Shown here piece by piece: positions 5,548 through 5,755 of a DNA stretch of 8,444 bases. The stretch is from a virus (taxonomy: Duplodnaviria > Heunggongvirae > Uroviricota > Caudoviricetes), in IMG/VR virus record IMGVR_UViG_2700989521_000015; one strand, given 5' to 3'. Position 1 is the stretch's first letter. Every line of letters starts with the position of its first letter. The position numbers and the translations under genes were made by a program. The notes under the pieces were generated by a model, which saw only the letters and a program-made list of their open reading frames with translations, did no database searches and was not told the DNA's origin.

Positions 5548-5603
5548 GGTATCCGTTCTGCTGAAGTGTCATGGCGTTGATTTTACGGTGACTCTTCGAC
5601 AGT

Positions 5604-5630
5604 GAAAAGAAAAAAGGCCGCAGAGCGGCC
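5604..5630 (-). terminator. Rho-independent terminator on the minus strand: stem GGCCGC / GCGGCC with 3-nt loop, followed by TTTTTTCTTTTC
   Basis: Hairpin at 5616-5630 and the A-run at 5604-5615 (T-run on the minus strand) read directly. Sits between the 146-aa ORF stop and the btuC start. Confidence 0.65.
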
Positions 5631-5755
5631 ATAAACACAAGTAAAAATCAACAAGTTAGATAATTATCAAAGACTTACAGACACACAAAAACACAGCCAA
5701 CCACAACAAATAACAGGGATGTGGTCACTTTGTGGATCATATCGCCGCCATAAAT

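Follow-up and report, generated by a model that had tools for sequence, protein, structure and literature searches.

The btuC-side attachment junction of a P2-like prophage at the ihfA/btuC terminator of Escherichia coli

P2-like prophages are known from several places on the Escherichia coli chromosome, the described sites in MG1655 being 2165238, 4104392, 950293 and ileY (PMC3448106 Table 1). Their related integrases have diverged in core-binding specificity, each with its own chromosomal site (PMC3448106), and the arm-binding repeats of the P2 type share the consensus tgTGGaCa (Nilsson and Haggard-Ljungquist, PMC3448106). Closest to the locus described here is PP_SE11-4 of E. coli SE11, for which the genome paper gives the type as P2-like, the position as "between btuC and ihfA" and the length of the duplicated sequence as 25 nt (Oshima et al, 2008; PMC2608844 Table 2). 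Because this SE11 site and the 25-nt duplication have been on record since 2008, the prophage, the site and the repeat length are already known, and the feature that we describe is an ordinary one with textbook P2 att architecture. The main value of the present analysis is correct annotation.

Here, we analyse one such junction in a window that corresponds to the whole 8444-bp draft contig LAIG01000052.1, which has an IS1 end on one side and IS600 on the other (Table 1). Interval 5548-5755 very probably runs from the btuC leader across the attL of a P2-like (Peduoviridae) prophage and then the int-proximal attP arm into the beginning of a cargo slot, with integrase-mediated recombination at the att core as the explanation of the interval as a whole.

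Table 1. Features at and beside the btuC-side junction (window coordinates).
Feature	Position	Strand	Basis or remark
Host btuC leader	5548..5605	-	Identical to K-12
Promoter-like elements in the btuC leader	-10 TAAAAT 5585-5580; -35 TTTTCA 5608-5603	-	Predicted; consensus match only, 9/12 positions
att core AAAGAAAAAAGGCCGCAGAGCGGCC, 25 nt	5606..5630	.	Two copies in relatives, one per prophage end; single copy in the empty K-12 site
ihfA/btuC intrinsic-terminator hairpin, 6-bp GC stem, 3-nt loop	5616..5630	-	Terminator scan; inside the core
int-proximal attP arm (P' arm of attL), phage-derived	5631..5740	+	Conserved in all relatives
IHF consensus match 1, AATCAACAAGTTA	5646..5658	+	Candidate, motif match
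IHF consensus match 2, TATCAAAGACTTA	5665..5677	+	Candidate, motif match
Two direct P2-type arm repeats, 11-nt period, ATGTGGTCA and TTGTGGATCA	5719..5739	+	Candidate sites for the Int N-terminal domain
Cargo module of two genes: coiled-coil protein of 146 aa with hydrophobic C-terminal segment, and Cys-rich protein of 120 aa	5756..6555	-	ORFs
Tyrosine integrase, 325 aa from the SE11-annotated start codon	6558..7535	-	Pfam Int_N (2e-28) and Phage_integrase (2e-17)
C-type HTH immunity repressor, 102 aa	7585..7893	-	Pfam HTH_3, phrog_147
Cox-like excisionase/repressor, 92 aa	7990..8268	+	phrog_575 "Cox-like excisionase and repressor", E = 1e-7
DUF4761 early gene, first 34 codons, cut by IS600	8283..8384	+	Pfam DUF4761; 102 nt identical to the SE11 gene
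IS600 left end at the contig end, start known to within 1 nt	8385..8444	+	99.4% identical to "IS3-like element IS600 family transposase" loci

Host flank, att core and strand exchange

In K-12 MG1655, selO (ydiU), rflP (ydiV), nlpC, btuD, btuE, btuC, ihfA, pheT and pheS lie in this order on one strand throughout; ihfA is found 100 bp upstream of btuC, with pheT and pheS next, and the spacer is located at about 1,795,200. The minus strand of the window follows the same order from a truncated selO through rflP/ydiV, nlpC, btuD and btuE up to btuC, in agreement with the initial annotation, which expected ihfA as the next gene. Two small ORFs, an integrase gene and an HTH repressor gene follow on this strand instead, and a small Cox-like gene is present on the plus strand. 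The same annotation noted that nothing resembling IhfA is encoded upstream of btuC, and this is borne out both by the comparison of gene order with K-12 and by a tblastn search of the window with K-12 IhfA, which returned only noise (E = 7.6, 14 aa).

Alignment to the K-12 ihfA-btuC spacer places the breakpoint at 5630/5631: the btuC side is identical to K-12 up to base 5630, and from 5631 the two sequences are unrelated. It had been proposed from the sequence that attL lies inside 5548-5755 and that, after a terminator hairpin at 5616-5630, host DNA gives way to prophage cargo and int. Each part of this proposal is confirmed. The hairpin is found by terminator scan and fold energy, the core occupies 5606-5630, and phage-derived, P2-like DNA begins at 5631, immediately past the last base of the hairpin. 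The junction accounts for the absence of ihfA beside btuC, and the sequence from 5631 onward should be annotated as a prophage remnant, with 5630/5631 as a precise boundary for prophage-calling tools.

The duplication of the core is directly visible in relatives. In SE11, attL and attR share the exact 25-nt repeat, equal in length to the published duplication (PMC2608844 Table 2), whereas K-12 has a single copy. The attL of both the window and SE11 reads ...cgacagTGAAAAGAAAAAAGGCCGCAGAGCGGCC followed directly by ataaacac..., the attR of SE11 reads ...cggttatTGAAAGAAAAAAGGCCGCAGAGCGGCC followed by tttttagttag..., which leads into the ihfA stop codon, and the empty K-12 site reads ...cgacagTGAAAAGAAAAAAGGCCGCAGAGCGGCCtttttagttag.... 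If one indel in the A-run is allowed, the similarity of the core extends back to 5603. Within the window, a repeat search of 5540-5800 gave only short pairs at chance level, and an Rfam scan found no family.

On the minus strand the hairpin reads GGCCGCTCTGCGGCC, then TTTTTTCTTT, with the U-run at 5615-5606. At attL, the all-GC stem of 6 bp and the 3-nt loop are followed on the minus strand by UUUUUUCUUU, as expected of an intrinsic terminator, which is the predicted function of this element. The fold energy of the hairpin is -11.6 kcal/mol at attL (z = -3.4) and -16.3 kcal/mol at attR, with z values ranging from -3.4 to -5.0. Hairpin and U-run are kept at both prophage ends, ihfA being followed at attR by the hairpin and UUUUUUCUUUC. 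The attB sequence is a nearly perfect palindrome, AAAAAAGGCCGC-AGA-GCGGCCTTTTT.

The 25-nt core includes the whole hairpin and the A/T run, and integration therefore duplicates the terminator. In the mechanism that we propose, a heterobivalent tyrosine integrase would recombine the attP core with the host attB, each of which consists of the ihfA/btuC terminator hairpin and the A/T run. As the sequence shows, ihfA still ends in a hairpin and U-run at attR after integration, transcripts from int and the cargo genes meet an identical terminator at attL ahead of btuC, and the btuC leader, including its promoter-like elements, stays host-derived. The promoter-like -35 element of this leader reaches into the att core at its left edge. 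The insertion probably leaves host regulation untouched, because the phage duplicates the terminator into which it inserts, and, as far as can be judged from the sequence, the insertion may be regulatorily neutral.

Where within the core are the strands exchanged? The attL copies always have the host-type TGAAAAG and the attR copies always the phage-type TGAAAG, which would place the crossover to the right of the TGAAA(A)G position. At the other side, attP and attB cease to match beyond the right stem at 5625-5630. Strand exchange in or at this right stem, GCGGCC, is most likely, on the basis of few informative cases and of a pattern that heteroduplex-overlap resolution could produce as well. 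Two secondary sites were also read on IMG/VR contigs: one is the acrB terminator hairpin, GGCCGCGCAAGCGGCC, for which the empty site was read too, and the other is the hairpin GAAAAAGGCCGCAGAGCGGCC inside a lambdoid prophage, near terminase genes.

A different place of exchange, namely an overlap of 7 bp (GCAGAGC) that is centred on the loop and has the symmetric half-sites AAAAAGGCC and GGCCTTTTT on either side, seems unlikely to us. Two half-sites around a 7-bp spacer form the classic tyrosine recombinase layout, and the near-palindromic attB would offer two equivalent core-type half-sites around such a spacer. However, heterology within the overlap normally blocks recombinases of the lambda Int class, and the loops differ between the recombination partners in several lysogens: the host loop GCAA is retained at attL in the acrB site, attL likewise has the host loop, AAT, where the host flank on the btuC side is more divergent, and FDAARGOS_401 has AGA at attL versus TAA at attR. 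A loop-centred overlap would be possible if heteroduplexes were tolerated, and exchange at the right stem is the reading that we prefer.

Attachment arm and adjoining prophage genes

To the right of the core lies the int-proximal attP arm. We pooled 66 attL arms from genomes with an identical Cox-like protein, IMG/VR contigs, relatives of the lineage and an integrase scan. These arms represent 19 unique sequences that can be aligned over the full 110 nt. Past ...GATGTGGTCACTTTGTGGATC(AT), the GGATC(AT) end, they diverge into at least four cargo types, and the conserved unit ends at 5738-5740.

The IHF consensus WATCAANNNNTTR has two perfect matches in the window, both in the arm, where 0.47 would be expected window-wide. 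In the first match, relatives vary only at N positions or at the permitted R position (A or G), and in the second, variation is confined to the NNNN positions, the specified ones being constant in the 19 unique arms. Further to the right, TGTGGN6TGTGG at 5720-5735 is the sole occurrence of this pattern in the window (0.03 expected), and the repeat pair of the attL arm reads TGTGGTCACTTTGTGGATCA. The attR arm, seen in six E. coli genomes, reads TGTGGACrCATnGTGGAAC, also with an 11-nt period, and continues with AAATCAATnnGTTA, a further IHF consensus. Direct arm repeats are thus present on both sides of the core. Perfect IHF-consensus matches likewise occur in both arms, and their substitution pattern fits constraint at the level of the motif. 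The invariance of the arm repeats among the 19 arms is partly built in, as that motif served to retrieve most of the loci; the attR arm and the comparison with P2 are independent of this retrieval. In a P2-labelled record, the core of P2 itself is flanked by TGTGGACnnnaTGTGGACA on either side.

In P2, IHF serves as accessory factor. By analogy with P2, the two IHF-consensus sites and the two arm repeats would let Int, IHF and Cox build complexes for integration and excision, and the motifs point to the att arms as putative binding sites of these three proteins. That a phage with IHF-consensus att arms inserts directly behind the gene for IHF-alpha is a mild curiosity, and a functional link is not indicated.

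The slot between the arm and int (window 5741-6557) is a swap point at which at least four unrelated modules alternate among relatives, with sizes of 400, about 818, 931-1074 and 1124 bp. The cargo proteins of the window belong to PHROG families of unknown function, and those of four slot variants have no significant Pfam or PADLOC match, with only sub-threshold hints of coiled-coil, Zn-ribbon or HEPN-like character. Two of the cargo types share a common architecture, in which a Cys-rich Zn-ribbon-like protein is paired with a coiled-coil protein that has a hydrophobic C-terminal segment. Another type is a single ORF of approximately 131-138 aa, and one has a weak HEPN-like match.

The integrase encoded beside the junction is of the tyrosine type and has an N-terminal domain for arm binding. 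This Int is 48% identical to that of P2, Wphi and fiAA91-ss (over the full length for P2 and Wphi), and its best match among 50,697 phage records reaches 55%. The genes for C and the Cox-like protein are divergent and lie beside int, an arrangement that corresponds to a P2-type switch; the Cox-like protein has no Pfam match. At the nucleotide level, 5631-8444 matches the 50,697 phage records only through the IS600 end and trivial fragments, and the int-C-cox module is present in none of these records. The reconstructed attP, searched in IMG/VR as an exact pattern, gave 0 matches, and these searches thus yielded no free phage that carries it.

Intact relatives and the remnant cut by IS600

In SE11, this junction is the start of a P2-like prophage of 35.8 kb, which extends directly to ihfA-pheT-pheS and contains genes for int, C, a cox-like protein, DUF4761, a replication endonuclease, portal, terminase, a P2-family capsid, tail sheath and tube, ogr and hok. 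The contig of the window ends in IS600 before attR, and SE11 supplies both the other prophage end and the direct repeat, 25 nt long, that the initial annotation proposed to locate. Five further E. coli genomes have hok, the P arm, the core and ihfA at attR.

The junction is widespread. Window positions 5300-6600 are matched over at least 80% of their length by 85 of 5426 complete E. coli genomes, with 98.9% as the best identity. The attL arm occurs in 300 of these 5426 genomes, once in each, including E2348/69, O157:H7, O111 and O145 strains, and the attR arm in 215 of 5426, including an O104:H4 strain. In all ten places that were read (10/10), the exact Cox-like protein adjoins btuC. Among GTDB species representatives, close integrases (97-98%) are found in only two, all others being at most 50% identical. 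One of the two records is titled Salmonella enterica and the other is labelled Vagococcus with an enterobacterial btuC flank, and both have attL at the equivalent terminator upstream of a btuC that is approximately 76-77% identical. The latter record, Vagococcus sp. WN89Y (NZ_JBQPOM010000071.1), has a Firmicute label and a btuC flank 77% identical to E. coli, and the assembly is probably contaminated or mislabelled. In E. coli strain 300709 (NZ_CP025903.1), the attR-side arm stops after 58 nt and is followed by an ISEc20 (IS110-like) transposase, not by ihfA; this is another IS-disrupted copy of that prophage end.

Beside btuC in the lineage of the window, the prophage is a stump of 2.75 kb that consists of attL, cargo, int, C and cox. 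IS600 begins at 8384/8385, the very position at which the identity to the SE11 DUF4761 gene ends after 102 nt. The full set of P2-like replication, morphogenesis and lysis genes that SE11 and other E. coli have does not follow here, as the element stops at IS600 in this lineage, and the prophage in this genome is a non-viable remnant cut by IS600. Could the int-C-cox segment instead be a small autonomous integrative island or satellite, with the junction as its end? In this lineage, the foreign DNA between btuC and IS600 indeed amounts to only about 2.75 kb and is devoid of structural genes. Yet the truncated DUF4761 gene matches that of the SE11 prophage without a difference over 102 nt and breaks precisely at the IS600 end, and all relatives without IS disruption run on into replication, portal, terminase, capsid and tail genes. 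These full P2-like gene sets contradict the small non-prophage island that had been named as a possible refutation of the prophage, and they leave such an origin very improbable. That the junction arose by an IS-mediated or homologous rearrangement which happened to break at the terminator would suit an IS-rich, rearranged genome with IS1 and IS600 at the contig ends, but is effectively refuted by the core duplication in intact relatives, as hundreds of E. coli genomes poor in IS elements, and Salmonella, share the identical breakpoint with the 25-nt direct repeat at the other end, and at 5631 IS sequence is absent while an integrase gene and arm-type sites adjoin.

What lies beyond IS600 in the lineage of this P2-like remnant? 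Six longer records (L057-L062) that encode the exact truncated 37-aa product continue with IS600 and then gapC', aldA, ydcF, IS1, IS66 and hrpA. In L057 and L059, the stretch 10100-20114 maps by local BLAST to K-12 from 1,490,450 downwards in reverse orientation, approximately 305 kb from btuC. The gapC'-aldA-ydcF-hrpA pattern fits an IS600-mediated inversion, one endpoint of which would lie inside the prophage; the predicted second IS600/DUF4761 junction had 0 matches in IMG/VR. The proposal that ihfA is displaced to the far side of the prophage holds for the intact relatives, SE11 and the five further genomes, in which ihfA adjoins attR. For the present genome it has to be modified: an intact prophage with ihfA simply at its far end is not what is found here, because IS600 cuts the prophage at about 8384 and the complete genomes of the lineage, among them CP026807.1, CP026840.1 and CP026842.1, continue into the inverted gapC-aldA-ydcF-hrpA region.

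A further idea, which we put forward as doubtful, is that the integrase may need little beyond a GGCCGC-loop-GCGGCC stem, with exchange confined to the 6-bp right stem. Terminator-like hairpins are common, and the family could then colonise other terminators, while the stump in the IS-inverted lineage might still recombine with its distant attR or with pseudo-sites and drive large inversions.

Other genes of the window are affected too. The btuC gene (window 4593-5547) is a pseudogene which, compared with K-12, lacks 1 nt near 4659 and 11 nt near 5335; these deletions leave ORFs of 277 and 77 aa, and in some complete genomes of the lineage the split is 245+77 aa. At the other contig end, the IS1 end (window 1-321; terminal inverted repeat ...GCAGCATCACC) cuts selO/ydiU to 450 aa versus 478, and the exact truncated selO product is found on only 11 contigs, including that of the window. 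Given the IS load and the pseudogenes, this may be an E. coli lineage of the Shigella type.

The position of the boundary also bears on the annotation of viral sequence collections. Public "viral" contigs that overshoot 5630/5631 carry host btuC, which is open to misreading as a phage auxiliary metabolic gene. A complete host btuC is present in 8 of the 43 IMG/VR "viral" contigs with the arm. In a 2026 survey of P2-like viruses, the putative auxiliary metabolic genes include "BtuC permease" (PMC13100340), and this listing is plausibly a prophage-boundary artefact of the ihfA-btuC att site.

Relation to known P2-like prophages

The element shares with P2 the order att-int-C / cox, a heterobivalent tyrosine integrase, direct repeats of the tgTGGaCa type that flank the core, IHF consensus sites and a Cox-like protein. 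It differs from P2 in its Int, which is only 48% identical, in its core and chromosomal site, and in having two IHF-consensus matches in the int-proximal arm. Moreover, the arm repeats directly follow the int stop codon in P2, whereas a variable cargo slot intervenes in the element of the window.

With Wphi, PhiD145 and 186, the element has a principle in common, namely that divergence of the integrase goes together with a site of its own. Their sites are 4104392, 950293 and ileY/ileX, and none of these is the ihfA-btuC spacer at about 1,795,200 (PMC3448106 Table 1). Neither P2 nor any of these three phages combines the same site with a closely related Int, their sites being elsewhere and Int identity being at most 48%. 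The expectation that the element uses a site other than that of P2 is therefore correct, given the 48% identity to P2/Wphi Int and the published locations of the P2, Wphi, PhiD145 and 186 sites (PMC3448106).

The attL described here is that of a widespread P2-like prophage family which uses the ihfA/btuC terminator as its att core. Its nearest described member is PP_SE11-4, whose attL region is 98.9% identical over window 5300-6600 and which has the same cargo, int, C and cox genes. In SE11 the prophage is complete, extending over 35.8 kb to ihfA, whereas the window retains its first 2.75 kb up to IS600.
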